DNA of 64,000 bases from a bacterium (GTDB lineage Bacteria > UBA8248): positions 2,784,001 through 2,848,000 of the forward strand of contig CBDBEV010000001.1 in the NCBI GenBank assembly GCA_965204535.1, read 5' to 3'. Positions 38,321 to 51,230 of the stretch are shown here, piece by piece; position 1 is the stretch's first letter; each line of letters opens with the position of its first letter. The notes under the pieces are model-generated. The model was not told the origin of the DNA and ran no database searches. It was given only the letters and a program-made list of their open reading frames with translations. A program made the position numbers and the translations under genes.

Positions 38321-39248
38321 GGAGCCGGCCCCGCGCCGCGCCTCTCGCCCTGAAAGGACAGCCCCTCCTCGGGGCTGTCCAACCCCCCCTACCCCCCCTT
38401 GACGGGGCTGTTGAAAAACCCCTGGTTTTGTGATCGTATGGATGTATTCCCCCTCGCCCGAGATGGGAGTTCCGGAGATGTTGGACCGCAAGAGGCGCGA
38501 GCAGATGGACTTGTTCGTGGCCGGCCCGCTGGAGAAGTTGATTCCCGAAGATCACATATTGCGCCAGGTGGACCGCGTACTGGATTTGAGTTGGCTTCGC
38601 GAGGAAGTGGCGGCGTGCTATTGCGCGGACAACGGTCGACCGGGGATCGACCCGGAAGTGGTGATCCGGTTGATGCTGGCGGGCCTGCTGCTGGGCTACG
38701 CGGAGGACCGCCGCCTGCTGCGCGAGGCGCAGGCGCATCTGGCGGTCCGGTGGTTCATCGGGTACAGGCTGGACGAGGATTTGCCGGATCATTCGAGCCT
38801 GACGCGTATCCGCCAGCGGTGGGGGGAGGCGCGGTTCAAGGAGATATTGCGCCGCACGGTTCAGGCGTGCCTGGACGCGAAGGTGGCGAAGGGAGAAGTG
38901 GTTCACATGGACGCGTCTTTGATACGTGCGGACGTGAGCTGGGAGAGTCTGGCGGAGCGCCACGCGGAGAAGGTGGTGCGGGAGAACGACTCGGCGGATG
39001 AGACGGGGAAGAAGGGCGGTGGCGGGGGTTCGGGTCCGGTGAGCCGAACGGACCCGGACGCTCGCCTGGCGCGCAAGAGCGCTCGGGCGGGGTTCGAGCC
39101 GAGCTACAAGCACCACGCGGTGGTGGACGACGAGCGTGGGGTGGTTCTCGACGTAGAGGTGACGGAGGGGACGTTGAACGAGCGGGAGATGATGGAGCCG
39201 CAGTTGGATGCGGTTTGCGAGCTCACGGGTCGCGCGCCCGCGGTGGTG

Positions 39249-41030
39249 GAGACTGTGAAAGTATTCCCACGATTCTGGTGGGTGACGCTGGCGAGCGATG
39301 CCCGGGTTGTCTGTACATGCTATCTTTACCGGTGAGTGAGATAACCACATAAAGGGTCACCACCATGTCCGAGAGACGTTATCAGGAGGTGCAGTCCCGA
39401 AGCCAGATGATGCTGCTTCCGCCGTGTCTGGACGACTACGTGTCCGAGCACAATGCGGTGCGCGCGATCGATGCGTTCGTCGGCACGCTGGACCTGGAGG
39501 CGCTGGGGTTCGCGCATGCCGAAGCGAACTGCGGCGCCGGTCAGCCGGCTTTCGACCCGGCGCTGCTGCTGAAGCTGTATCTGTACGGCTACCAGCACCG
39601 GGTACGGAGTTCGCGCCGTCTCGAAGCGGAGACGCGGCGCAATCTGGAAGTGATCTGGCTGTGCCAGGGTGCGACGCCGAGCTACAAGACGATTGCGGAT
39701 TTTCGCAAGAACAATGTGGCTGCGCTGCAGGAGGCCAACCGGGAGTTCGTGCTGCTGTGCCGCGAACTCTCGCTGCTGGGCGGCAGCCGGGTGGCGGTCG
39801 ACGGGACTTTTTTGAAGGCCGATGCGAACCTGGACAGCTTCCAAACCAAGCGGTCCCTGGCAAGGGACCTGAGGCGTTTGGAGAAGAGGATTGCGGCGTA
39901 TCACCGGCAGTTGGACGAGGCGGATGCGCGCGGGGAGGAGTGTGGGGACGGTTCGGAGGATCCGGACCTGCCGGTGAAGCTCAAGGCCTTGATCGAGAGG
40001 CAACAAAAGAAGAAGGCACTGCAAGAGCATTTGCAGGAAAGCGGAGAGCGTCAGGTATCGGGGGTCGATGCAGATGCTCGACTTCTGAGGAACGGCGATA
40101 TAATGGTGGGCGGATACAACTGCCAGATCGCGGTGGACGACAAGCACAAGCTGATTGTCGCGGAGGATGTGGTGCAGGACGGCAATGACTCCGCTCAGTT
40201 GGAGCCGATGATGACGAAAGCCGGCGAAGCCATGGGCAGCGAACGCCTGGTCGGCCTGGCGGATTCGGGCTACTTCAACGGCGCACAGTTGAAGAGTTGC
40301 GAAGACAAGGGAATGGAGGTGTATGTTCCGATACCGAACCAGACGGCCCGCAAGGGCAAGGACGGACGATTCGGCAGCGATGAATTCCGTTACGATGCGC
40401 AGGATGACACGTATGTCTGTCCGGCCGGAGAGCGTCTGGTTCGAGGCGGCACGACCACCGTCAGGGGCAGGCTGTATTACTTTTATCGCGGGACGGCGGC
40501 GGTTTGCCGGGACTGTTCGTTGTCGGGCCGATGCCTGACAAAGTCGAGATCGACGCGCAGGATACAACGCTGGGAGCATGAGGACGTGGTGGACCGGCAT
40601 CGCAAGAAGATGAACGCCCGTGTGCCATTGATGCGCGGGCGAAGCACACTCGTCGAACATCCATTCGGTACGATCAAGCGCTGGGCGGGGATGGATCATT
40701 TTGTGATGCGCGGACTCGGCAAATGCCGCGGCGAATTCAGCCTGATGACGCTGGGTTACAACTTCAAGCGGGTCATGCGTGTGCTGGGCGGAGCTGCATT
40801 TGTGGAGCATTGTCTGCAAAAACAGCGGTTGGGGACGAATGGCGTGTGAACTTGAAGCCGATTCTTCGAGGACTTGACCGCGACCCCGAGCTGACCGGCC
40901 GCCGAGACGTTTCTCTCCCGGCTCTGCGGTGTTGTTGCTCCCGAAGTTGAAGACAGTGTCCGGCCATCGGGCTGCAAGCGTAAGCGAGCCCTGTTCCGGA
41001 GACTGTGAAATCCAATACTCTCACAGTCTC
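39249..41030 (+). mobile_element. IS1182-family element B (1782 bp)
   Basis: IRs GAGACTGTGAAAGTATT / AATACTCTCACAGTCTC; duplication CGCGGTGGTG (10 bp, or 8 bp if the ends are one base longer). Confidence 0.9.
39365..40849 (+). CDS. IS1182-family transposase (distinct subgroup)
   Basis: VRAID.FV, SSRRLE, TIADFR, VDGT, GYN.Q, ADSGY, VEHPFGTIK. Confidence 0.92.
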   Translation: MSERRYQEVQSRSQMMLLPPCLDDYVSEHNAVRAIDAFVGTLDLEALGFAHAEANCGAGQPAFDPALLLKLYLYGYQHRVRSSRRLEAETRRNLEVIWLCQGATPSYKTIADFRKNNVAALQEANREFVLLCRELSLLGGSRVAVDGTFLKADANLDSFQTKRSLARDLRRLEKRIAAYHRQLDEADARGEECGDGSEDPDLPVKLKALIERQQKKKALQEHLQESGERQVSGVDADARLLRNGDIMVGGYNCQIAVDDKHKLIVAEDVVQDGNDSAQLEPMMTKAGEAMGSERLVGLADSGYFNGAQLKSCEDKGMEVYVPIPNQTARKGKDGRFGSDEFRYDAQDDTYVCPAGERLVRGGTTTVRGRLYYFYRGTAAVCRDCSLSGRCLTKSRSTRRIQRWEHEDVVDRHRKKMNARVPLMRGRSTLVEHPFGTIKRWAGMDHFVMRGLGKCRGEFSLMTLGYNFKRVMRVLGGAAFVEHCLQKQRLGTNGV

Positions 41031-41711
41031 CGCGGTGGTGACGGCGGATTCGGGCTATGCGTATTCGAAGGTGTATGCGGGATTGGAGCGGCGGGGGGTG
41101 GACGCGGTGATACCGGCGAAGAAGGAGCCTTCCCAGAGCCGTGTTCCGCTGCAGTTGTTCCGCTACGACGAGCGGCACAAGGTGGTGAAGTGTCCGGGGG
41201 GCCAGACGCTGCGCCCCCGGAAGGAGACGGAGCGGGGGCGCTACTATGGTTCGAGGACGCGCGATTGCGCGGGGTGCGCGCTGAGGTCGGATTGTCTGCC
41301 CAAGTCGCACACGAGCAGGACGGTTCTGATTCCGCATGAATATCCGGCGCTGTTGCGCGCGCGCCGCCGGCACGCGCGCCGGGGGGAGGAGGAGGGCCGG
41401 CTGTGGCGCCGCCACATGGGGCGCTCGGAGGGCTACCACGGCGAGGCGAAGAGTCGGCACGGACTGGGGCGGGCGGTACGCCGGGGTCTTGCGAACGTGA
41501 AGATCCAGGCCTACCTGACGGCGACTGCGGTGAACCTCAAGCGGCTCGCCGCCGCTGTTGCGGCGGGTTTATTCGCCCACTGGAGGGTCTGCGCCGCCCG
41601 GAAACGCCGAATGCGCGCATATCGCGGCCTCACGCGCCGATTGGGCTTCCTCTCCGCCGCCGCGTGAGCCGCCATACCCCCTGCTTCAAAACAGGGTTTT
41701 TCAACAGCCCC

Positions 41712-42240
41712 TTGACAGGGGGGTATGAAAAGGCGGCGCCCGCCACCGAGATGAACACAAATTCACTCCCCCCTTGAGGGGGTTGTTGAAAAAGTCCGAG
41801 GAGTGAGTGTTCGACGTGAGGGGGGTGTAGGGATAGGTCGCGACCTGTCCCTACGGACGAATACGGCCGGGGAGGGTCTGGTCGTCCTTTCACCTCGATC
41901 CGCAATGTTCCCGTAGGGGCGGCCCCCTGTGGCCGCCCTGCCCCGTGGCTACGCTTCGCAGGGACAGGCACGGGGGCCTGTCCCTACAAACCCTTTACTT
42001 GCAGGGTGCTGTGCGGACTTTTTCAACAGCCTCCAAGGCGGGAGTGAATCCTTTTTTTGCGGGGGTTGCTTTTTTTACCCCCCTGTCAAGGGGGGTAGGG
42101 GGGGTTGGTTTTCAAACCGGCGGGCGGCCTCATTCGCCGTAGCGAAGCCTCGCCATCGCGCCTGCGCTGCGTGAACCTCCATGCCGCCGATCCCGAAACG
42201 GGGTTTTTCAACAACCTCGTCAAGGGGGTTAGGGGGTTGA
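41712..42240. repeat. nested palindrome/MITE cluster; 41908-42164 duplicates 42988-43242 including the recombinase 3' end
   Basis: direct alignment; TCATTCGCCGTAGCGAAGCCTCGCCATCGCGCC present twice. Confidence 0.8.
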
Positions 42241-42281
42241 ACCCGACCGGGGAGGGAGGGTTCGCGGCAAGCGCAGTTCGA

Positions 42282-42548
42282 CTACCTGGTTCGCTCGATG
42301 AGTTCGCGCAAAGAGGCCATCGCCTCCTCGTGCCTGTGTTTGGAATCTTCCTCCCTGCGGCGAGACTCGGCCATGGCCTCGTCGTGCTTGGCCATCGCCT
42401 CACGGTGCTTGCGCTCCGAATCGTCGGCGCGCATGGCGGCGTTCCTGTCCATCGTGCGGATGCCGTGGTAGATGAGGCCGAGGCCGGCGTAGGCGGCTGC
42501 GAGGTTCAGGTAGGCGGCGATGAGGTTGAGGTATTCGGACGACGTCAT
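42282..42548 (-). CDS. small membrane-anchored coiled-coil protein with HxxxM repeats
   Basis: one hydrophobic segment; HREAM/HDEAM/HEEAM; LRELIERT end shared with 48041-48604. Confidence 0.7.
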   Translation of the reverse strand: MTSSEYLNLIAAYLNLAAAYAGLGLIYHGIRTMDRNAAMRADDSERKHREAMAKHDEAMAESRRREEDSKHRHEEAMASLRELIERTR

Positions 42549-42653
42549 GGGTTTTCCCCGGAGTGGGCCACATGGAACTCTCGCGTATATTCAGTATAAA
42601 AAGAGGTTCCGCCCATCGTCAAACCCCGCGGGGCGGGGACCCGGGCCCACTCG

Positions 42654-43190
42654 CTCTCGCCCTGAAAGGACAGCCCCTCCTCGGGGCTGTCCAACCCCCC
42701 CTACCCCCCCTTGACAGGGGGGTATGAAAAGGCGGCGCCCGCCACCGAGATGAACGCAAATTCACTCCCCCCTTGAGGGGGAGTCAGTGAGCTAGGGGCG
42801 TAAGCCCCGCAAGCGAACTGGTGGGGGGAGTTTTTTCTGTGGCATGTCCCCCCACCGAATCGGCCTTCGCCAAGGCTCGGCCTCTTCGTCGGGCTTTCCC
42901 CTCGGGAAGCCCGACCCTCAAGGGGCTGTTGAATAACCCCTCGTCGAGCGGAATTGATTGCCGGAATGACAATCAAAAGCACATTCACCCGTAGGGGCGG
43001 CCCCCTGTGGCCGCCCTGCCCCGTGGCTACGCTTCGCAGGGACAGGCACGGGGGCCTGTCCCTACAAACCCTTTACTTGCAGGGTGCTGTGCGGACTTTT
43101 TCAACAGACCCTCAAGGGGGGAGTTGATCTTTTTTGGCGGGGGTTGCTTTTTCATACCCCCCTGTCAAGGGGGGGTAGGGGGGGTTGGTT
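42654..43190. repeat. nested palindrome cluster containing MITE 42922-43110
   Basis: CTCAA duplicated at 42917-21 and 43111-15. Confidence 0.8.
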
Positions 43191-43209
43191 TTCGAGCTGG
43201 CGGGCGGCC

Positions 43210-44271
43210 TCATTCGCCGTAGCGAAGCCTCGCCATCGCGCCCTGTTTCGCGAGCTGGCCCTGCGCGTAGCGCCCCGGCATGGTCGGCGACTGCCAGCGC
43301 CCGGCGATTTGCATCTCGACCAGCGACGCCCCCGCCGTGGCCAGGCTCTGCGCGCTGCCCACGCGCAGGCTGTGCCCGCTGATGCGCCCCTCCACGCCCG
43401 CGTCCCGGGCGCGCTGGATGATGATGCGCCGGATGCTCCTCTCCGTCAGGCGGCCTTCCCGCAGCCGGCCCCCCTTGAACAGCGGCCGGAACAGCGGCCC
43501 CTTCGTCAGGCCTGCCTCCAGAAGCCAGGACCGGACGCGCGCCACCGTCGGCTCGCCCAGAAACTGCACGACGCCCTCGCCCTCCTGGTCCGTCTTCGAG
43601 CGGCGGATCAGCACCGTCTGCTCGTCGAGGTCCACGTCCTCGATGTCGAGCGCCTCGACCTCCGACACCCGGAGCAGGGCGTCGCTCGCCACCGCCACGA
43701 TCGCCGCGTCGCGCAGGCCCCCCAGGGTCCCCGTCCCCTCGGCCAGCGCCGCCGCGCGGTCCGCCTGCTCCCAGCGCACCCCCACCACCTGGCCGCGGCC
43801 GCGCTCTGCGGCCAGGCGCCTGAAGCCGGCCAGCACCCGCTCCGAGGCCGCCCCCGCCGGAGAGGGCCGGCCGTTCAGCTTCGCCCGGAAGCGAAGCGCC
43901 GCGACCGCCATCGCGGCCACGGCCGCCGAGTGCCCCTGTTCGTAGAGATCCCCCAGGTACGCCGCTATCCCGGCGTCGGTCTCGGGGTTTCCCGAGCGCT
44001 CGAACCTCCGCAGGGCCGTCTCGTACACTCGCCGCGTGTTCTTAGACATCGACGCCTTCGCCAGGTCGGCGGCCGCACGGGCCGGTCGGGCCGGCCTTCT
44101 CGTCAAAGCGATGTCCTGTTCTGGGTCGGGCGGTGTTGCCCCAGTCGTCATGGCGAGAAGCCAACCTTCTAGGTCAGCGGCCGTTTCCATTCCCTGAGGC
44201 CGTCCGAGCGCCTCGTTACGCTCAAGGGCCTCGTCAAATACCGAGTATAGACGACGGCGGGAAATTTCCAA
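43210..44271 (-). CDS. Cre-like tyrosine recombinase
   Basis: RDAA..LR.SE, RRSKTDQ, GHSLRVG, GRW, terminal RY; start uncertain (44271, 44190 or ~44151). Confidence 0.92.
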   Translation of the reverse strand: MEISRRRLYSVFDEALERNEALGRPQGMETAADLEGWLLAMTTGATPPDPEQDIALTRRPARPARAAADLAKASMSKNTRRVYETALRRFERSGNPETDAGIAAYLGDLYEQGHSAAVAAMAVAALRFRAKLNGRPSPAGAASERVLAGFRRLAAERGRGQVVGVRWEQADRAAALAEGTGTLGGLRDAAIVAVASDALLRVSEVEALDIEDVDLDEQTVLIRRSKTDQEGEGVVQFLGEPTVARVRSWLLEAGLTKGPLFRPLFKGGRLREGRLTERSIRRIIIQRARDAGVEGRISGHSLRVGSAQSLATAGASLVEMQIAGRWQSPTMPGRYAQGQLAKQGAMARLRYGE

Positions 44272-44325
44272 GTAAAAAAACCGTTTTGGGGGGCAGAAAC
44301 CCGGACGAAACGGCGGGTTTCTGAA

Positions 44326-44349
44326 GTCCGATAATTACTATTATCAGAA
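44326..44349 (+). promoter_or_regulatory. putative recombination site 1
   Basis: GTCCGATAA-TTACTA-TTATCAGAA. Confidence 0.75.
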
Positions 44350-44377
44350 AATATAACACCTCTCACGGCCATGTCAA
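44350..44377 (-). promoter_or_regulatory. sigma70 promoter inside the putative invertible segment, facing the recombinase
   Basis: TTGACA-16 nt-TATATT with extended -10 TG. Confidence 0.75.
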
Positions 44378-44505
44378 GCGCAATTCCGGGGTCCCCGGAG
44401 GGGTTTCGGGCGCTGTTTTGCGCCTTTTTTCGCTTATATTTCGCTTATTTTCGTCTCAAATGCGCCCCGAATCCGGTTTTTCGGCGGAAAACGGGGGTTC
44501 TGGGG

Positions 44506-44529
44506 GCCGTTAATAGTAATTAGCGGTCA
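44506..44529 (-). promoter_or_regulatory. putative recombination site 2, inverted
   Basis: minus strand GACCGCTAA-TTACTA-TTAACGGCC; same asymmetric spacer as site 1. Confidence 0.75.
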
Positions 44530-44757
44530 CCAGGCCGGGAACGGTGGGACATACCGCAGGGATTCACCTCTCGCGGAACGACTCACCACCGGCCCGGACC
44601 ATGAAAGGGTTCAAGTCCGCCGCGTTTCAGGCGGCCGAAAATACGAATCACCAGTTTGTGAAGGCCCGAAATGAAAGCTCACGAAAGGAGGTTAATCGGA
44701 GAAAGCCGGAAATTCACGGAAAATCCCTTTTTCTATGTATTCAGGAGGACTCACTAA

Positions 44758-46791
44758 ATGACGTTCAGAGAGAAACCGATAAACAAGCTTTACGCTTTCG
44801 CGCTGGCGGCGCTCTTCGCGCTGACGCTGGCGGGCTGCGGCGGTGGCGGCGGCGGGACGACTGCCACGCCGGACTCGGAGCCGCCACCGATGCCGACGGC
44901 TTACGAGCAGGCGGTTGCGGCAATCGCGGCAGCCGAAACGGCGGAAGCGGCACAGGCGGCCTACGATGCGGTGGACCAGGCTGCTATTACTGGCGCAGAG
45001 TCGCAGAAGCTGCAGGCAGCGCTTGACGACAAACTGGATATGCTGGCGACAGCGATGCGCGCGGCAGACCAGAAAAAAGCGCTGAGTACGGCAGCCGGGG
45101 AGATAGATACCTCCGACCTGTCCACTCAGGAAGCGGTTGACGCCGCACGGACCGCCATCGCAGGGCTTCGGCAGGCGCTGGCCGACGCGGAAGACGTGAG
45201 CGATGAAGACAAGGCGATGTACATGTCGCAACTCGACGACGCCGTGGCTGCCGTGGACGAGGCGCAGGGCGGGATCGACACCGACGAGCGCCGGACGAAC
45301 CAGACGGCGGCATTGACGAGCGCTTCCGGGACCCTCCAGGCGGCCCTCGCGGCGCTTTCCGGCTCGACGCCAACGCAGGCGCAGCTCGACGCCGCCACCG
45401 CCGCTCTCGCCGCTCTGAACATGGCGATTGCGGATGGCGCAGACTTGACCGACGCGGAAAAGGCTGCGTATGTGCGAGAGGCGGCCAATGCGGCGGCGCC
45501 GATCCAAACGGCGCAAGCCGCCTTCGATAAGGCCAAGGACGCTGCCGACGACCAGATGAAGAAGGACATGGCCGCCAGCGGCAAAGCGTTGCACAAGGCG
45601 TTGACGACCGATCCGCTGGATTTCCTGGACGACGATGTCGCAGTATCCCTTGCGGCTAGCGGACTTATGGTGAACCCGAATGGAACTGCCGACGATACCG
45701 ATGGGCTAGCCTCCGTCCCCTTGAAGGCCAGCGGTTCGGCCGGATCGTTGGACGGCTGGAGCGGGATGAACTATGCCCATATGGATTCGGGCACGAAGGT
45801 CGCCAACTCTGCCGTGGTTTACACGAATCAAGGTGCGCCGACGACGGAGACCTTCGCTAGTGAATACGGGACCGGTGGTGATTCAGTGACCGAGGGTACC
45901 TACACCCCGGACAACCGTCGTCTGGCGATTGACGTATCGGCGACCGCCAATAGCAAAAAAATGAAGAGTTCGAGGTTCCCGACGGTTGGAAGCCAAAATT
46001 TCCCACCTGCGCAGTCGGGAGGCAGCGAAGTGTCGTTCTCGGGCACATATGACGGAGCGTCCGGCACATACCTGTGCACTACGGCCAATGCTGCCAATGG
46101 TTGCGCTGCCACGTATACCCCTACCGGAGGAATAACGCTCACCGGGACCTGGATATTCACCCACGCGGTCGGTGCGATGGTGTCGAGGGCAGACGGCGAC
46201 TACCTGTATTTCGGTTGGTGGTTGCGCAAGGACAAGGACGACATGCCGACGCATGCCAGCGCGTTCTCCGGTGTGGCGGGAACGGTAGCGGCCCCGACCG
46301 TCAGTTACACTACCCTTGCAGGCTCCGCGACCTATGTCGGCAAGGCGGTCGGAAAGTTCGCTCTGAGCAACCCGCTCGACGGCACGGGCAACGCCGGCCA
46401 CTTCACGGCGGACGCTACCCTGACCGCCAAGTTTGGGGCGAACGAGGCGCCCACCAACGGTGGTGTTACCGGAGTGATCGAAAACTTCATGGCCAACGGT
46501 GCCTCCGTGCCGTGGAGCGTGAAGTTGAATCGCGCTGCATGGGGTGACACCGGCTCGTTCGCCCCCGCGGATGATGCTACCACCACAACTGTTGACGAGT
46601 CGGTGACCGCCGGCACAGTTTGGTCAATCGACGGCAACGCGGCGCCGGCGTCCGGCATCTGGAGCGGTCAGATGTATGACGAGAAAGCCAGGGACGGAAG
46701 TGACGTTCCGACCACGGCCATCGGCACGTTCCAGTCCGAGTTCAGCAGCATCGGCCGCATGGTCGGCGCCTTCGGCGCGAACAAGCAGTAG
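44758..46791 (+). CDS. surface lipoprotein: Ala-rich helical stalk plus TbpB/HupA-like C-terminal barrel
   Basis: lipobox LAGC then poly-Gly; YLYFGWW, ATYVGKAVG, terminal VGAFGA; AGGAGG RBS. Confidence 0.8.
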   Translation: MTFREKPINKLYAFALAALFALTLAGCGGGGGGTTATPDSEPPPMPTAYEQAVAAIAAAETAEAAQAAYDAVDQAAITGAESQKLQAALDDKLDMLATAMRAADQKKALSTAAGEIDTSDLSTQEAVDAARTAIAGLRQALADAEDVSDEDKAMYMSQLDDAVAAVDEAQGGIDTDERRTNQTAALTSASGTLQAALAALSGSTPTQAQLDAATAALAALNMAIADGADLTDAEKAAYVREAANAAAPIQTAQAAFDKAKDAADDQMKKDMAASGKALHKALTTDPLDFLDDDVAVSLAASGLMVNPNGTADDTDGLASVPLKASGSAGSLDGWSGMNYAHMDSGTKVANSAVVYTNQGAPTTETFASEYGTGGDSVTEGTYTPDNRRLAIDVSATANSKKMKSSRFPTVGSQNFPPAQSGGSEVSFSGTYDGASGTYLCTTANAANGCAATYTPTGGITLTGTWIFTHAVGAMVSRADGDYLYFGWWLRKDKDDMPTHASAFSGVAGTVAAPTVSYTTLAGSATYVGKAVGKFALSNPLDGTGNAGHFTADATLTAKFGANEAPTNGGVTGVIENFMANGASVPWSVKLNRAAWGDTGSFAPADDATTTTVDESVTAGTVWSIDGNAAPASGIWSGQMYDEKARDGSDVPTTAIGTFQSEFSSIGRMVGAFGANKQ

Positions 46792-46813
46792 CAGCGAAGA
46801 GCAGGACGCCTAT

Positions 46814-46841
46814 GGCTTCGGGGCTTCACGGCCCCGGAGCC
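46814..46841 (+). terminator. stem-loop after the lipoprotein gene
   Basis: GGCTTCGGGGC-TTCACG-GCCCCGGAGCC; no U tract. Confidence 0.45.
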
Positions 46842-47099
46842 GGGGCGATATGAGGAGAGCGAAAAAGGGGGTTGCCCGTTGGTTGCTTCCCTCGTGATGG
46901 AGCAAACTGTACCGCTCCTGGTTGTGAGTTTGAGTCCTCGAGCCGGGAGGGGGAACAACGGGCGGCCCCTGTTTTCGTCATGCACACAGGCCGGCGCCCC
47001 GCTCGGCCGGGCCTCGGACCTCAGGGATTGTGTCGCAGCAACTCCCGCCTTCCGCCGGCCCTTCGCGGGGTGTCGGCCTTTTTTTTCTTGAGCGGATGC

Positions 47100-47960
47100 G
47101 CCCGCATCCCTGCCCTGAAAGGACAGCCCCTCCTCGGGGCTGTCCTGCCCCCCCTACCCCCCTTGACGGGGTTGTTGAAAAACCCTCCGGTGGGGAAGGA
47201 ATCCCGATCATCGAATTGTTCACCGTAGCAAGGACAGGCCCCGGCGCCTGTCCGAGGCCCCCGTGCCTGTCCGTGGCCCTCGCGCCCTTGCTGTATCCGG
47301 GTGAATACGACCGACGGGCGGCCACGGGGGGCCGCCCCTACAACTGCGGCGCGTAATCGCTGTAGGGACAGGTCGCGACCTGTCCCTACGGGGTGTCGCT
47401 TCCTCGGTCGGTTCGATTGCCCTCTCACTTGTTGAAAGGCAACCCCCCCCTACCCCCCCTTGACAGGGGGGTAAGAAAAAGCAAGATCTCAAAAAAGGAT
47501 CAACTCCCCCCTTGAGGGTCTGGCTTCCCGAGGGGAAAGCCCGACAGAAGCCGAGCGGTTTGTGCGAAGGCTGATGCGGTGGGGGGACATGCCACAGAAA
47601 AACTCCCCCCACCGAATCGCTTGCGGGCTTACGCCCTTAGCTCTTCGTCTGGCTTTCCCCTCGGGAAGCCAGACCCTCAAGGGGCTGTTGAAAAAGCCCT
47701 GATGAACGCGGGTTTTGCGCGACCGAGGAGGGGCGGTTTTGTAGGGGCCGCATACATGCGGCCCTTGTAGTGGGCAAAAAAAAATCAGGGTCGCATATAT
47801 GCGACCCCTACATACAAACAAATTTTCCTCTCGGGGGTTTTTCAACAACCCCCTCAAGGGGGGAGTGAATTTTCTCTCTCGTCGGTCTGTTATATACGAC
47901 AAATCCAGAGTTCCAGGCTTTTTCATACCCCCCTGTCAAGGGGGGGTAGGGGGGGTTGGT
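47100..47960. repeat. nested palindrome cluster containing MITE 47681-47852
   Basis: TSD CTCAA (47676-80, 47853-57); interior homologous to 13058-13232. Confidence 0.85.
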
Positions 47961-48040
47961 TTTGGGGCGAGACGACCGGTGCGGGGGACGCAAAAGAACC
48001 TCATCCCGAGTAGGCCCGAAGGGCCGTATCGAGGGGGCCG

Positions 48041-48604
48041 CTACTCGGGGTGAGGGGTATCGGGCGGCGCGGCGGTGCGGCGGATGAGTTCCTTGAGCGC
48101 CTCCATGTTCTCATGGTGCTGTTCGCTTTGCTCCCCGCGCAGCGCCTTGAGCGCCTCCATGTTCTCGCGGTGCTGATCTTTGTGCTCCTCGCGCTGGGCG
48201 GCGAACGCTTCCATGGTCGCGATGTGCTGAGCTTTTTGATCCTCGCGCTCGGCTGCGAGCGCGTTCATGGTCGCGCGGTGTTGATCTTTGTGCTCTTCGC
48301 GCTGTGCGGCGAGCGCGCTCATGGCTTCGCGGTGCCGGGTGTCGAGCGCCTCCATGTTTTCGCGGTGCGTGCGCTCCATCGCCTCCATGGTTTCGCGGTG
48401 CTGGGCGTCGCGGTGGCGCGCGGCCTGGCGCATGAAGTAGAGGCCGTAGGCGATCAGGGAGCACTGCGCGGCCCCGACGAGCGCGGCGACCCACACCGAG
48501 GCCTGCTGCGCCGCGAGGGACGCTTTCTGGATGGCCAGGGATGCTTCCTGCAGCGCGAGTGTGGATTCCTGGATGGCGAGGCTTGCGGCTTCGTATTCCG
48601 TCAT
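48041..48604 (-). CDS. membrane-anchored coiled-coil protein with 11/18-aa HxxxM repeats
   Basis: heptad ASLAIQx repeats, TM segment, seven HxxxM units; TTGACA promoter-like element upstream. Confidence 0.75.
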   Translation of the reverse strand: MTEYEAASLAIQESTLALQEASLAIQKASLAAQQASVWVAALVGAAQCSLIAYGLYFMRQAARHRDAQHRETMEAMERTHRENMEALDTRHREAMSALAAQREEHKDQHRATMNALAAEREDQKAQHIATMEAFAAQREEHKDQHRENMEALKALRGEQSEQHHENMEALKELIRRTAAPPDTPHPE

Positions 48605-48721
48605 TCGGTTTTCCCCCACGTTAGTGGGTCCTCATAGGCGTTACTCTAATGCGCCGCCGCGCGTTTTGTCAAGATGAATGCCGGGCGGTGGGGGAGCGAG
48701 ACCGAACGGGGAGAAGAGCGT

Positions 48722-49090
48722 TTCACTCCCCCCTTGAGGGTCTGGCTTCCCGAGGGGAAAGCCAGACGAAGAAGCCGAGCGATTTTTGCGAAGGCTGAAT
48801 CGGTGGGGGGACGATTCTAAAGTAAAAGCTCCCCCCACCGAATCGCTTTCGGGCTTACGCCCTCAGCTCTTCGACTCCCCCTCAAGGGGGGAGTGAAATA
48901 CCTTGGGGGTCATTGCTGACTGATGAAGGAAGAACCAACGCAAGGGGGTTTTTCTTCCACCCCCTCGTTGGCGGGCGTCGCCTTTTCATACCCCCCTGAC
49001 AAGGGGGGGCAGGGGGGGTTGGTTTTGGGGCGAGGGAGATGTAGTGACAGTCCCTCCTCGGGGCTGTCCGAGGCCCCCGTGCCTGTCCGA
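48722..49090. repeat. CTCCCCCCTTGAGGG-type palindrome plus neighbouring repeat arms
   Basis: TCACTCCCCCCTTGAGGG ... CCCTCAAGGGGGGAGTGA. Confidence 0.8.
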
Positions 49091-49148: not shown

Positions 49149-50993
49149 TCAAAACACCATCCTTAGGGCGAGCGAGAGGTGGTGGCTGCGGCGCGAGTCT
49201 TCGCCGAAGCGTCCGGAGTAGCTCAGGAGGCCGCTCGCGCGCTCGCCGAGTTTCGCGCTCAGCCCAAAGTCTGCGCTCACGGTGCTGACCGAGGGCGTGA
49301 AGCCCGGAAGCGTGAAGCGTCCGGGCATGGTGTTCGAACCCGCCGAGACGAGGACGGGGTCGTCCTCGAGTTCGCGCTCATAACCGATGCGGGCGTAGGG
49401 GCGGAACCCGCCGACGCTCCAGTCGAAGCCGTAGCCGCCGCGCATGACGAGCGAGTTGCGCGAGAAGTCCGAAAAATTCATCGCGGCCGAAGAATTTCCG
49501 TTCTCCCGGTAGCCCTTGACCTCCTGGTTGAGCAGCGAGAGACCGAAGAACGGGCCGTGCCGGAGAGTCTCCGAAGCGCCCAGCGTACACGTCAGGTCGA
49601 GTTCGCCCCCGAACTGGGCGGCATCGGTGGAGCCGCGCTCGGTGCGCACCGCCGCGCCCAGGGCGATGGAGCGCTCGACGTCCACCGAGGTCTGCCCCAG
49701 GGTCAGGGCGACGCTCACCTGGAGGCCGCCGCTGCGCCACGCGCCGTGCAGCGAGCCGAGCACCGCGTCGCCTTCGAGGTTCGCGCCCGCGAGTTCGTTC
49801 TCATGAAGGGCGATGCTGAGCGCGGCGCCCCAGGAGAGGTCGGGACCTGCGCGGTGGCCCGCGCCCAGGGTGAGCGCCGTCATGTCGGATTCGATATCCC
49901 CGAGGCGCGCGAAGGCGCCCGCGTCGCTCATGCCGAACCCGCCCCGCGCATAGCCGCGCCAGCTCCCGACGGGCAGCGCGAAATCCGCGGCCCGCTCCGC
50001 CGAGATGACGCCGTGGTGCGCCTCCGCCGCCTCGACGCCCGCCTCGCCCGCGAGCGAAACCTGGAGCGGGGCCGCGAGCGCGGCGGTGACGAGGTTCGCG
50101 AGCATCGCGTGGACGGCGCCGCCCGGGTGGCTGCGGTCCGCGAACAGATGCGTTTCGCCTGCGCCCGGCGCGTAGGTGACGGGAAAAGGAGAACCCTCGG
50201 GCCCGCACTGGATGGAGAGGGCGCTGTCTGCGTTCGGCGCCCCGCAGGCCGTCCCCGTGACGCTGGTGAAGCCGTACCTCCCGGGATTCGCGGCGATTTC
50301 GCCCAGCAACGCATGGGCGTTGACGGAGATGACGCCCTCCTCACGCTCGCGAATGCCGGCATGGAGTTTCTCGTTGTATTGGCCGACCAGCGCGGAAAGC
50401 CCCGCCTGAACGGCGGGACCCAGGGTGACGGCGTAGGGCGCCTGGCCGGCGTCGGGCATGTTGAAGACCACGACGCGGCGGGCGCCCGCCGCGCGGAGTC
50501 GCCCAATCTGCGCGGCGTTCACGTCCGCAGCCGCAAGGATGTGGGCCAGCGCGTTGGGGGAGTCGTTTTGCGCGGCGTCCGAGATGTCGTTCGAGCCGCC
50601 GAAGACGGCGTAGAGCGCGTTCGGGTCGAGGCTTCCGCCGCTGGCGGCGAGATGCATGCCAATCTGCTCCGTCACCGTCGGCACGTCGGGCTGATCGCAG
50701 GGCGTGGCCGGGTTCATGCACGCCCCGGCGAAGGCGTAGTTCGGCCCGCCGGCGAGCGAGTTGCGTCCCGATGCGCCGAAGGCCCCCGCGACGAGCTCGG
50801 CCCAGACGGGGTCGGGGTTCGTGGTGAAGCTCGTGCCCGCGGGGAGCCCCTGCGTCTGGCCCACGTTGCCCGAGTCGCTCAGGCTGTCGCCGAACACGAC
50901 GAAGTCGGAGAAACTCTGGGCCGGGGCGCTCCCGGCGAACCCCAGGGTGAGAGCGAAAACGATGACGAGGAGCAGACGAAAACGATGCGGCAT
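49149..50993 (-). CDS. GDSL lipase/esterase autotransporter (EstA-like)
   Basis: VFGDSLSDSGN, G.ND, D..HP, C-terminal barrel ending in F. Confidence 0.9.
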   Translation of the reverse strand: MPHRFRLLLVIVFALTLGFAGSAPAQSFSDFVVFGDSLSDSGNVGQTQGLPAGTSFTTNPDPVWAELVAGAFGASGRNSLAGGPNYAFAGACMNPATPCDQPDVPTVTEQIGMHLAASGGSLDPNALYAVFGGSNDISDAAQNDSPNALAHILAAADVNAAQIGRLRAAGARRVVVFNMPDAGQAPYAVTLGPAVQAGLSALVGQYNEKLHAGIREREEGVISVNAHALLGEIAANPGRYGFTSVTGTACGAPNADSALSIQCGPEGSPFPVTYAPGAGETHLFADRSHPGGAVHAMLANLVTAALAAPLQVSLAGEAGVEAAEAHHGVISAERAADFALPVGSWRGYARGGFGMSDAGAFARLGDIESDMTALTLGAGHRAGPDLSWGAALSIALHENELAGANLEGDAVLGSLHGAWRSGGLQVSVALTLGQTSVDVERSIALGAAVRTERGSTDAAQFGGELDLTCTLGASETLRHGPFFGLSLLNQEVKGYRENGNSSAAMNFSDFSRNSLVMRGGYGFDWSVGGFRPYARIGYERELEDDPVLVSAGSNTMPGRFTLPGFTPSVSTVSADFGLSAKLGERASGLLSYSGRFGEDSRRSHHLSLALRMVF

Positions 50994-51230
50994 GCGAAGG
51001 ACTCCTTTTTCGGGAGAGAATTTACGTCGATAGCGAAAAGACCCGCGCGTCGAATGAGGGCAAGATAGCAAATTCACGGCGCCTGCGGCAATCAAAAACG
51101 CGCCGCTCGCAAACGCTTTGCGCATCGGGAAGGGCTCTCCTGCGGCGTTTCGCGGGATTCGGGCCTGCGGGAGTGAAACCGCCGCGAATCGTGGTATAAT
51201 GCCGTATCCGTTTCGGTTACGTCCTTAAAA

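Follow-up and report, generated by a model that had tools for sequence, protein, structure and literature searches.

The 64,000-nucleotide window analyzed here, positions 2784001-2848000 of contig C2 in the 4.56-Mb source genome (G000), contains a gene for a Cre-like tyrosine recombinase and a gene for a TbpB-like lipoprotein. The two diverge around a segment of ~175 bp that carries a predicted sigma-70 promoter, P1, and is bounded by two inverted copies of a recombination site (Table 1). Very probably the window holds one member of a multi-copy cassette family, and the recombinase is likely to flip the segment, so that P1 faces either the recombinase gene (OFF, the orientation in the window) or the gene under control, the payload (ON), here a lipoprotein predicted to be exported by Slam. 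An invertible-promoter phase switch is very likely because spacers match within cassettes, flipped cassettes occur, one syntenic locus is found in both states, the catalytic residues of the recombinase are intact, and the payload has a predicted TbpB-like fold in a genome that encodes Slam. Coordinates given without a contig or locus name are those of the window, and L-numbers designate loci in relatives.

Table 1. Features of the window cassette (aa, amino acids; SD, Shine-Dalgarno sequence).
Feature	Position	Strand	Details	Basis
Cre-like tyrosine recombinase	43210-44190	minus	326 aa; ATG 44190	PF00589, E 9.8e-17
Predicted fixed recombinase promoter P2	44244-44271	minus	TTGGAA-16-TATACT; outside the segment	consensus 9/12
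T7 run with upstream hairpins	44274-44323	minus	T7 run at 44274-44280	RNA folding
Recombination site 1 (recombinase side)	44326-44349		arm A, spacer TTACTA (44335-44340), arm B	sequence and family alignment
Putative invertible segment	44341-44513		OFF orientation in window; 179 bp core-to-core	homologous segments flipped in 7/54
Predicted invertible sigma-70 promoter P1	44350-44377	minus	TTGACA-16-(TG)TATATT	consensus 11/12
Recombination site 2 (payload side, inverted)	44505-44528		spacer 44514-44519, identical to site 1	
Leader	44523-44757	plus	235 nt; SD AGGAGG at 44743-44748	sequence
Lipoprotein	44758-46791	plus	677 aa; lipobox LAGC (Cys27); Ala-rich region; predicted C-terminal handle and barrel (TbpB/fHbp/HpuA type)	AlphaFold2 model

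The recombinase is Cre-like, as a preliminary description of the locus had proposed. In addition to its PF00589 match, its best match in the Protein Data Bank (PDB) is Cre (E 3.8e-13 over residues 78-322, compared with E 3.3e-7 for a Xer-like protein), and the six catalytic residues R174, K199, H273, R276, W299 and Y308 all align with those of Cre. By E-values and bit scores it resembles Cre more than Xer or FimB, and its NCBIfam matches all fall far under the cut-off, the FimB-type model NF007371 scoring 24 bits against a cut-off of 222. Alternative starts exist at ATG 44151 and TTG 44271; ATG 44190 was chosen because a deletion variant at C2:2397418 retains that start. The RKHRWY motif is present in all eight full-length recombinases of G000, and the eight intact copies are 72-96% identical to that of the window. 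No recombinase match was found in the phage collection, and the plasmid matches, among those listed, are site-specific integrases at only 32-36%. An open reading frame (ORF) of helix-turn-helix or excisionase-like appearance, judged from sequence, recurs 3′ of many recombinase copies (for example L038:4697-5416, minus strand) and may take part in cassette movement.

The lipoprotein has no Pfam or NCBIfam match, and its identification as TbpB-like holds on the lipobox cysteine together with the predicted fold. The AlphaFold2 model of residues 270-677 has a predicted local distance difference test score (pLDDT) of 93.7, and its best Foldseek matches are fHbp, HpuA and TbpB. VIA-align gives Z scores of 14.7 to hemophilin (root-mean-square deviation, rmsd, 3.5 over 193 aligned residues), 14.1 to the TbpB C-lobe and 13.9 to fHbp (rmsd 3.5-3.8 over 189-200 residues for all three). 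A full-length SlipAM/Slam gene is present in G000 at C2:795287 (PF04575, 104 bits), and the payload is a predicted Slam-exported surface lipoprotein. At C2:792561-796156, a switch-less TbpB-like lipoprotein gene lies directly upstream of the sole SlipAM gene found, and further paralogues also have no switch.

The preliminary description had placed site 1 exactly; it had recognized site 2 as an inverted 24-mer but put it at 44506-44529, one base to the right of its actual position. All four arms fit the pattern KNCYGNTAA and the two 6-bp spacers are the same, both as had been stated. The cores, TAA-TTACTA-TTA, occupy 44332-44343 and 44511-44522, and the 12-mer they share has one exact copy per strand in the whole genome, exactly at the two sites. 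It had been suggested that inverted-repeat scanners could miss the pair; a repeat finder nevertheless caught it (23 nt, 83%), and of the 227 inverted pairs that it returned for 43000-47000 this one ranks second. The outer arm A is similar to the inner arm C over ~20 bp (44314-44334 and 44493-44513), so that in the ON state the recombinase side would have a single, long and nearly palindromic site, which may set a directional bias.

P1 lies between the sites and is directed out through site 1 toward the recombinase, as previously noted. The same consensus scan revealed P2, which was absent from the earlier account, and found three promoter-like sites in 43000-47200 compared with 0.6 ± 0.8 in shuffles, with none on the plus strand. 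A constitutive lipoprotein promoter downstream of 44529 had been named as evidence that would speak against a switch; within the leader no sigma-70-like promoter reaches 9/12, the best candidate being 8/12 at 44713. An Rfam scan of 41500-48800 returned one match, at chance level only. Across the family alignment arm B adjoins the -10 box, and from this sequence arrangement it likely overlaps the P1 transcription start; bound recombinase would therefore likely also damp P1.

Cassettes in the source genome and related lineages

A search of G000 with a 20-bp site pattern gave 32 matches, compared with one for its reversed control. TAA-N6-TTA pairs within 1 kb number 28, and 16 of these are inverted, spacer-matched and 168-180 bp apart. 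All 16 complete cassettes enclose TTGACA, and a 17th is divided over the two ends of contig C1. The search for further site pairs near paralogous genes, suggested in the preliminary description, thus recovers 17 dispersed cassettes in G000, with more in relatives. An intact recombinase is present in eight of the 17 and a remnant in two, and the other seven lack one altogether. Spacers are reused, with 13 types among the 17 cassettes and one spacer found four times in the related genome G002, and a unique spacer "barcode" for each cassette was rejected on this ground.

Among the G000 payloads, 15 of 17 end in a TbpB-like C-terminal motif and 13 have a lipobox start; the remaining payloads are one 1253-aa protein, from a subfamily with adhesin domains, and one without assignment. 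A subfamily of cassettes is placed to drive exported proteins of ~1000-1300 aa (G000 C2:2387365-2391126; L031-L033, L038-L040 and L044-L046 in G002). Two of these large proteins were examined, and both contain Calx-beta domains, one of them additionally cadherin-like and fn3 domains. Downstream of one flipped cassette (L066, G005), the first ORF gives the impression of encoding the N-terminal part of an integrase and not a surface protein. Two payload lipoproteins (G000 C2:374847-376594 and L035) are out of frame, one just past a run of Gly codons behind the lipobox and the other mid-gene, as could result from sequencing error, slippage or decay alike.

The intergenic DNA of the cassette is matched in 16 of 22 same-genus genomes, in part of them by the leader alone. 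Among 51 genomes of the phylum, 14 carry the recombinase at E<=1e-40. The leader is present in G013 and G022, in which neither the segment nor the recombinase was found at this threshold. Scans of Joint Genome Institute (JGI) metagenome contigs gave no match. Close recombinase relatives occur in genomes labelled Nitrospinota or Tectimicrobiota bacterium, and a sponge-metagenome sequencing run (X3) carries near-identical pieces; on these two grounds the host bacterium is likely a sponge associate. The habitat assignment uses X3 only (share 0.31), runs with small shares having been excluded.

Cassettes have been gained or lost between close genomes. Only three of the 16 G002 cassettes share synteny on both flanks with a G000 cassette, and empty sites are found in both directions between the two genomes. 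An orphan full site at C2:561247-561266, with the spacer TCGTTA that also occurs in two cassettes elsewhere, is bordered by a leader remnant on one side and by the 3′ end of two tandem lipoprotein genes on the other, and is possibly a rearrangement scar. The window cassette is itself flanked by small minus-strand ORFs (42282-42548 and 48041-48619) whose products have a hydrophobic N-terminus and charged repeats. No confident Pfam or NCBIfam family was found for these proteins, and a similar ORF adjoins the cassette at C2:2207108. Transposase-like ORFs, judged from their translations, lie upstream (38430-41667), and a GDSL-esterase autotransporter lies downstream (49149-51125).

More distant relatives carry variants of the arrangement. 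Four Latescibacterota-labelled loci (L092, L093, L095 and L107) have a related recombinase and an inverted pair ~270-290 bp apart, with matched spacers of three types; the promoter is aimed at a TonB-dependent receptor, all four are ON, and one arm is degenerate. In three Poribacteria-labelled loci (L096, L101 and L102), a 10-12/12 promoter fires through a single site toward the recombinase, and no partner site was found within 450 bp. Single sites were also seen upstream of related recombinases in L079, L086 and L090 (Binatia) and in L084 and L105, the L079 site standing directly behind a promoter. Such single-site promoter-recombinase units are a possible ancestral, autoregulated module. A complete matched site pair in the OFF orientation was observed in L081 (Dehalococcoidia). 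In L076 and L078 the switch precedes a haloperoxidase-like gene (with a PAP2/VCPO domain in L076), and in L076 both sites have a 7-bp spacer.

Matched spacers and the two orientations

The comparison set comprised 54 complete cassettes from 12 genomes, with 16 from G000, 16 from G002 and 22 from ten others, a subset of the loci. It omits the cassette split by C1, L063 (no TTGACA) and L057 (partner site without the TAA core), all three of them spacer-matched, as well as an overlapping alternative pairing at L058. Despite the presence of 22 spacer types, the two spacers are matched in 53 of the 54 cassettes, whereas 10,000 shuffles gave a mean of 3.3 and a maximum of 12. Identity within pairs is 0.98-1.0 at all six spacer positions, compared with 0.37-0.86 between cassettes, and the arms are not homogenised. 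Twenty-two types imply at least 21 changes, each hitting both sites, though kin are not independent. Between the window and its orthologue, L035, the same spacer base is altered at both sites.

Seven of the 54 cassettes are flipped, and in these the outer arms are constant while the inner arms are exchanged at the spacer. A tree of the segments requires seven orientation changes (bootstrap 6-7). The most direct comparison is that of L042 in G002, which is ON, with C2:2207108 in G000, which is OFF: on either side the synteny runs for many kb at 94-97%, and the segments are 88% identical when one is flipped and 46% when it is not. Both copies lack a recombinase and share an identical deletion junction, and at least one flip at this locus therefore likely took place in trans.

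These patterns bear on an account in which the sites serve only as autoregulatory operators, resolution sites or the ends of a small mobile element, with orientation fixed at insertion. The single-site modules of distant relatives and the turnover of cassettes between close genomes are in keeping with such a role. However, it does not lead one to expect flipped copies that hold their outer arms and swap their inner arms at the spacer, nor both orientations at one syntenic locus, and it has no need for 53 of 54 matched pairs spread over 22 types. Moreover, the sites are inverted rather than direct, and by established mechanism inverted sites yield inversion. We regard this account as very improbable.

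Tyrosine recombinases act as four subunits on four arms, strand exchange takes place at the spacer edges, and inversion is the outcome when the sites are inverted. In the proposed switch, four recombinase subunits would bind arms A-D and exchange strands across the 6-bp spacer. In the ON state, transcription from P1 would cross site 2 and enter the leader and Shine-Dalgarno sequence of the lipoprotein. The flipping could be done in trans by a pool of up to eight recombinases with putative fixed promoters of their own, and as many as 17 surface proteins might be set ON or OFF independently, most of them OFF. Inversion through a spacer mismatch would leave a heteroduplex at each spacer; on replication, the strand geometry would give one daughter two copies of spacer 1 and the second daughter two copies of spacer 2. 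Segregation of this kind would copy a mutation to the partner site, so that spacers could drift between cassettes yet match within one. Compensatory mutation under selection is an alternative to such copying.

Several points weigh against an active inversion switch at this locus or narrow its basis. RecV recombination completes only with identical spacers, as presented in PMC12282940, and a comparable rule here would mean that the copying step requires rare tolerance of mismatches. One cassette, L044, has a mismatched spacer pair, and two outer-arm positions show a within-pair excess of identity (0.54 vs 0.31 and 0.41 vs 0.22), which probably reflects subfamily structure. The assignment of payload sides was manual, and the tree of the segments is weak, its starred branches by themselves forcing only one change. 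The orientation evidence comes from paralogues or separate genomes rather than from one population, and the promoters, the start sites and surface display are all predicted. Finally, the window and its orthologue L035 are both OFF, so that a flip at the window locus itself is not seen.

The last observation also suits the view that the inversion family is real but the window copy, or most copies, are frozen OFF or flip very rarely, the present orientations being history. Arm C of window site 2 deviates from the family consensus, and some payloads or recombinases are broken, both of which are consistent with decay into a frozen state. Against this, the window spacers, which differ from the orthologue's in each of the two sites, still match each other, and the cassette has an intact recombinase of its own. 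A further argument comes from contig C1, which begins and ends inside a site 2 spacer (C1:1-185 and C1:1593640-1593653, with a 4-nt overlap). Its opening inside a spacer, at a locus that is contiguous in G002, has a chance probability of ~6e-5. Mixed orientations could have caused such a break, which makes this argument an indirect one. The flanks of the two C1 ends are adjacent in G002, ~0.2 kb apart instead of ~5.2 kb, which indicates that G002 has an empty site there. On balance this view seems unlikely, and a working switch remains the preferred reading.

Four sequencing runs (X1, X2, X3 and X9) were examined at the window as assembled contigs, which lose rare variants. With that loss of rare variants, contigs from X1 and X2 cross both window sites in the unflipped orientation with 0 differences, and no joints were found. 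At the cassette at C2:567356, the ON junction is crossed by an exact short-read contig in X1, and the ON state is therefore not a long-read artefact. Two opposite-strand joints in X2 at the C2:567356 sites were considered as flips of the same locus and rejected. The contig behind one joint has the letters of the paralogue at C2:1583268 (six listed differences, matching the seven between the paralogues), and the other joint could not be assigned to a locus.

Recombinase expression and implications of the array

The preliminary description combined two ideas, and they fared differently. An invertible promoter that would be aimed at the lipoprotein when flipped is strongly supported by the occurrence of both orientations among paralogues and relatives and by the co-variation of the spacers. 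The additional proposal, a self-limiting toggle in which antigen ON means recombinase OFF, is not borne out. It would make P1 the main recombinase promoter in the OFF state, such that a flip to ON silences the recombinase and locks the switch. P1 does point to the recombinase in OFF, the single-site Poribacteria loci have the same promoter-to-recombinase layout, and the Latescibacterota cassettes, with their matched spacers, are without exception ON. However, 22 of 30 recombinase-bearing cassettes have the fixed P2 motif in the interval from site 1 to the recombinase, and 25 of 30 have the T-run before it, with the proviso that the regular expression used to define "recombinase-bearing" overlooked some remnants (L033, L044, L046, L065 and L066). 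Seven of the eight intact recombinases in G000 reside in OFF cassettes and seven cassettes have no recombinase at all, while the recombinase-less locus represented by L042 and C2:2207108 differs in orientation between genomes. A self-silencing switch should also pile up in ON unless selection removes ON cells, whereas 47 of 54 cassettes are OFF. A sequence-level test consequently did not bear out dependence of the recombinase on the invertible promoter with action in cis only. Because of the P2 motif, the up to eight recombinases acting in trans and the OFF majority, a lock in ON is unlikely, and the self-limiting toggle as a whole appears doubtful.

In many G000 and G002 copies, RNA folding predicts terminator-like stems of -17.7 to -24 kcal/mol immediately before the T-run. 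A conserved terminator was not supported for the window copy, where formation of the terminator stem has a predicted P of 0.004, compared with P 0.99 for an alternative stem at 44294-44323. This point favors some control of the recombinase by P1 in the window, and judging from the sequence it is plausible that OFF-state read-through adds to recombinase expression there. The T-run could alternatively serve as an UP element of P2, and P1 may be the ancestral recombinase promoter.

Taken more broadly, and only tentatively, the family could be a mobile Cre-derived module. Its ancestor would have been a unit of promoter, site and recombinase that regulated itself; the module would then have spread through sponge-type symbionts belonging to several phyla and have come to serve exported proteins that are unrelated to one another (Slam lipoproteins, Calx-beta/cadherin adhesins, TonB receptors and a haloperoxidase-like enzyme). 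Each inversion would rewrite both spacers to a single sequence, producing a partly orthogonal address code with at least 22 natural spacers and allowing up to 2^17 surface states per symbiont. Phase variation by inversion is documented mainly in pathogens and gut commensals; the array described here, with 17 switches, belongs to an uncultured and likely sponge-associated lineage. Placed over TbpB-like proteins, the array allows a direct test of whether these symbionts change their surface to counter phages or recognition by the host. With 54 site pairs and 22 spacers for a single Cre-like enzyme, the family also constitutes a natural experiment on spacer rules, including the "spacer code" proposed for Clostridioides difficile, and the family is a candidate orthogonal recombinase toolkit.

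Comparison with known systems

No paper on this switch was found in our literature search; the main text of DeepInverton (PMC11602134) does not contain "sponge", and its supplementary inverton tables could list such segments. The switch belongs to none of the compared systems proper, although the principle itself is known. Phage P1 Cre is the best structural homologue of the recombinase and shares its six aligned catalytic residues, with distant overall similarity (E ~4e-13). The stagger of Cre strand exchange is 6 nt, with which the variable 6-bp core is compatible. Cre resolves replicon dimers at one site. Unlike loxP, with its 13-bp palindromic arms at a single site, the cassette has paired, inverted, asymmetric sites with conserved arms of ~9 bp placed around a promoter.

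In C. difficile, RecV is described as acting on two arms around a 6-bp spacer, with identical spacers for each switch and dispersed switches served in trans (PMC12282940, PMC5903667). The arm-6bp-arm layout and the identical spacers at both ends (53/54) are features in common. Unlike the C. difficile "spacer code", the spacers here are not unique (13 types among 17 in G000 and one used four times in G002). The cassettes also differ in having a predicted promoter on the segment, a recombinase gene that travels with the cassette, and a Cre-like N-terminal domain in the recombinase that RecV lacks according to PMC12282940.

In Escherichia coli fimS/FimB-FimE and the Proteus mrp IE/MrpI system, a sigma-70 promoter on an invertible element lies by a tyrosine recombinase gene (PMC8777976, PMC7444556), and mrpI is given as having its own transcript (PMC7444556). 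The neighboring recombinase gene, the invertible promoter and the control of a surface structure are shared with the cassette. However, those are single loci with fimbriae as the product, with 9-bp repeats in fim, whereas the payload here is a lipoprotein. Dispersed invertible promoters of surface molecules are likewise a feature of the Bacteroides Mpi/Tsr-type systems, which are described with globally acting recombinases (PMC2268961, PMC5903667). Mpi, by contrast, is a serine recombinase (PMC5903667), and lineage, payload and site architecture also differ.

The payload resembles Slam/type XI secretion system (T11SS) surface lipoproteins, characterized in PMC5449769 by a lipobox, a handle and a barrel. 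Like the Slam cargo proteins TbpB, fHbp, HpuA and hemophilin, it has a lipobox and a predicted handle and barrel with structural Z scores of 12-15, and a SlipAM gene lies next to a paralogue. Unlike the solved Slam cargo, it shows <=20% identity, has a long Ala-rich region and occurs outside the Proteobacteria.

In its working the array also resembles the mpl (P35) family of Mycoplasma penetrans, whose lipoprotein genes are thought to be turned ON and OFF independently by adjacent invertible promoters (PMC10502178, PMC2268961), with inversion attributed to a tyrosine recombinase (PMC3599477). Both are lipoprotein multigene families with an invertible promoter for each gene (13 lipobox payloads among 17 cassettes here). 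The mpl system, however, consists of 38 genes in three clusters with a single recombinase, whereas the present array has 17 dispersed cassettes and eight intact recombinases that are Cre-like and linked in cis, and its TbpB-like payloads are of Slam type in a genome that encodes Slam.

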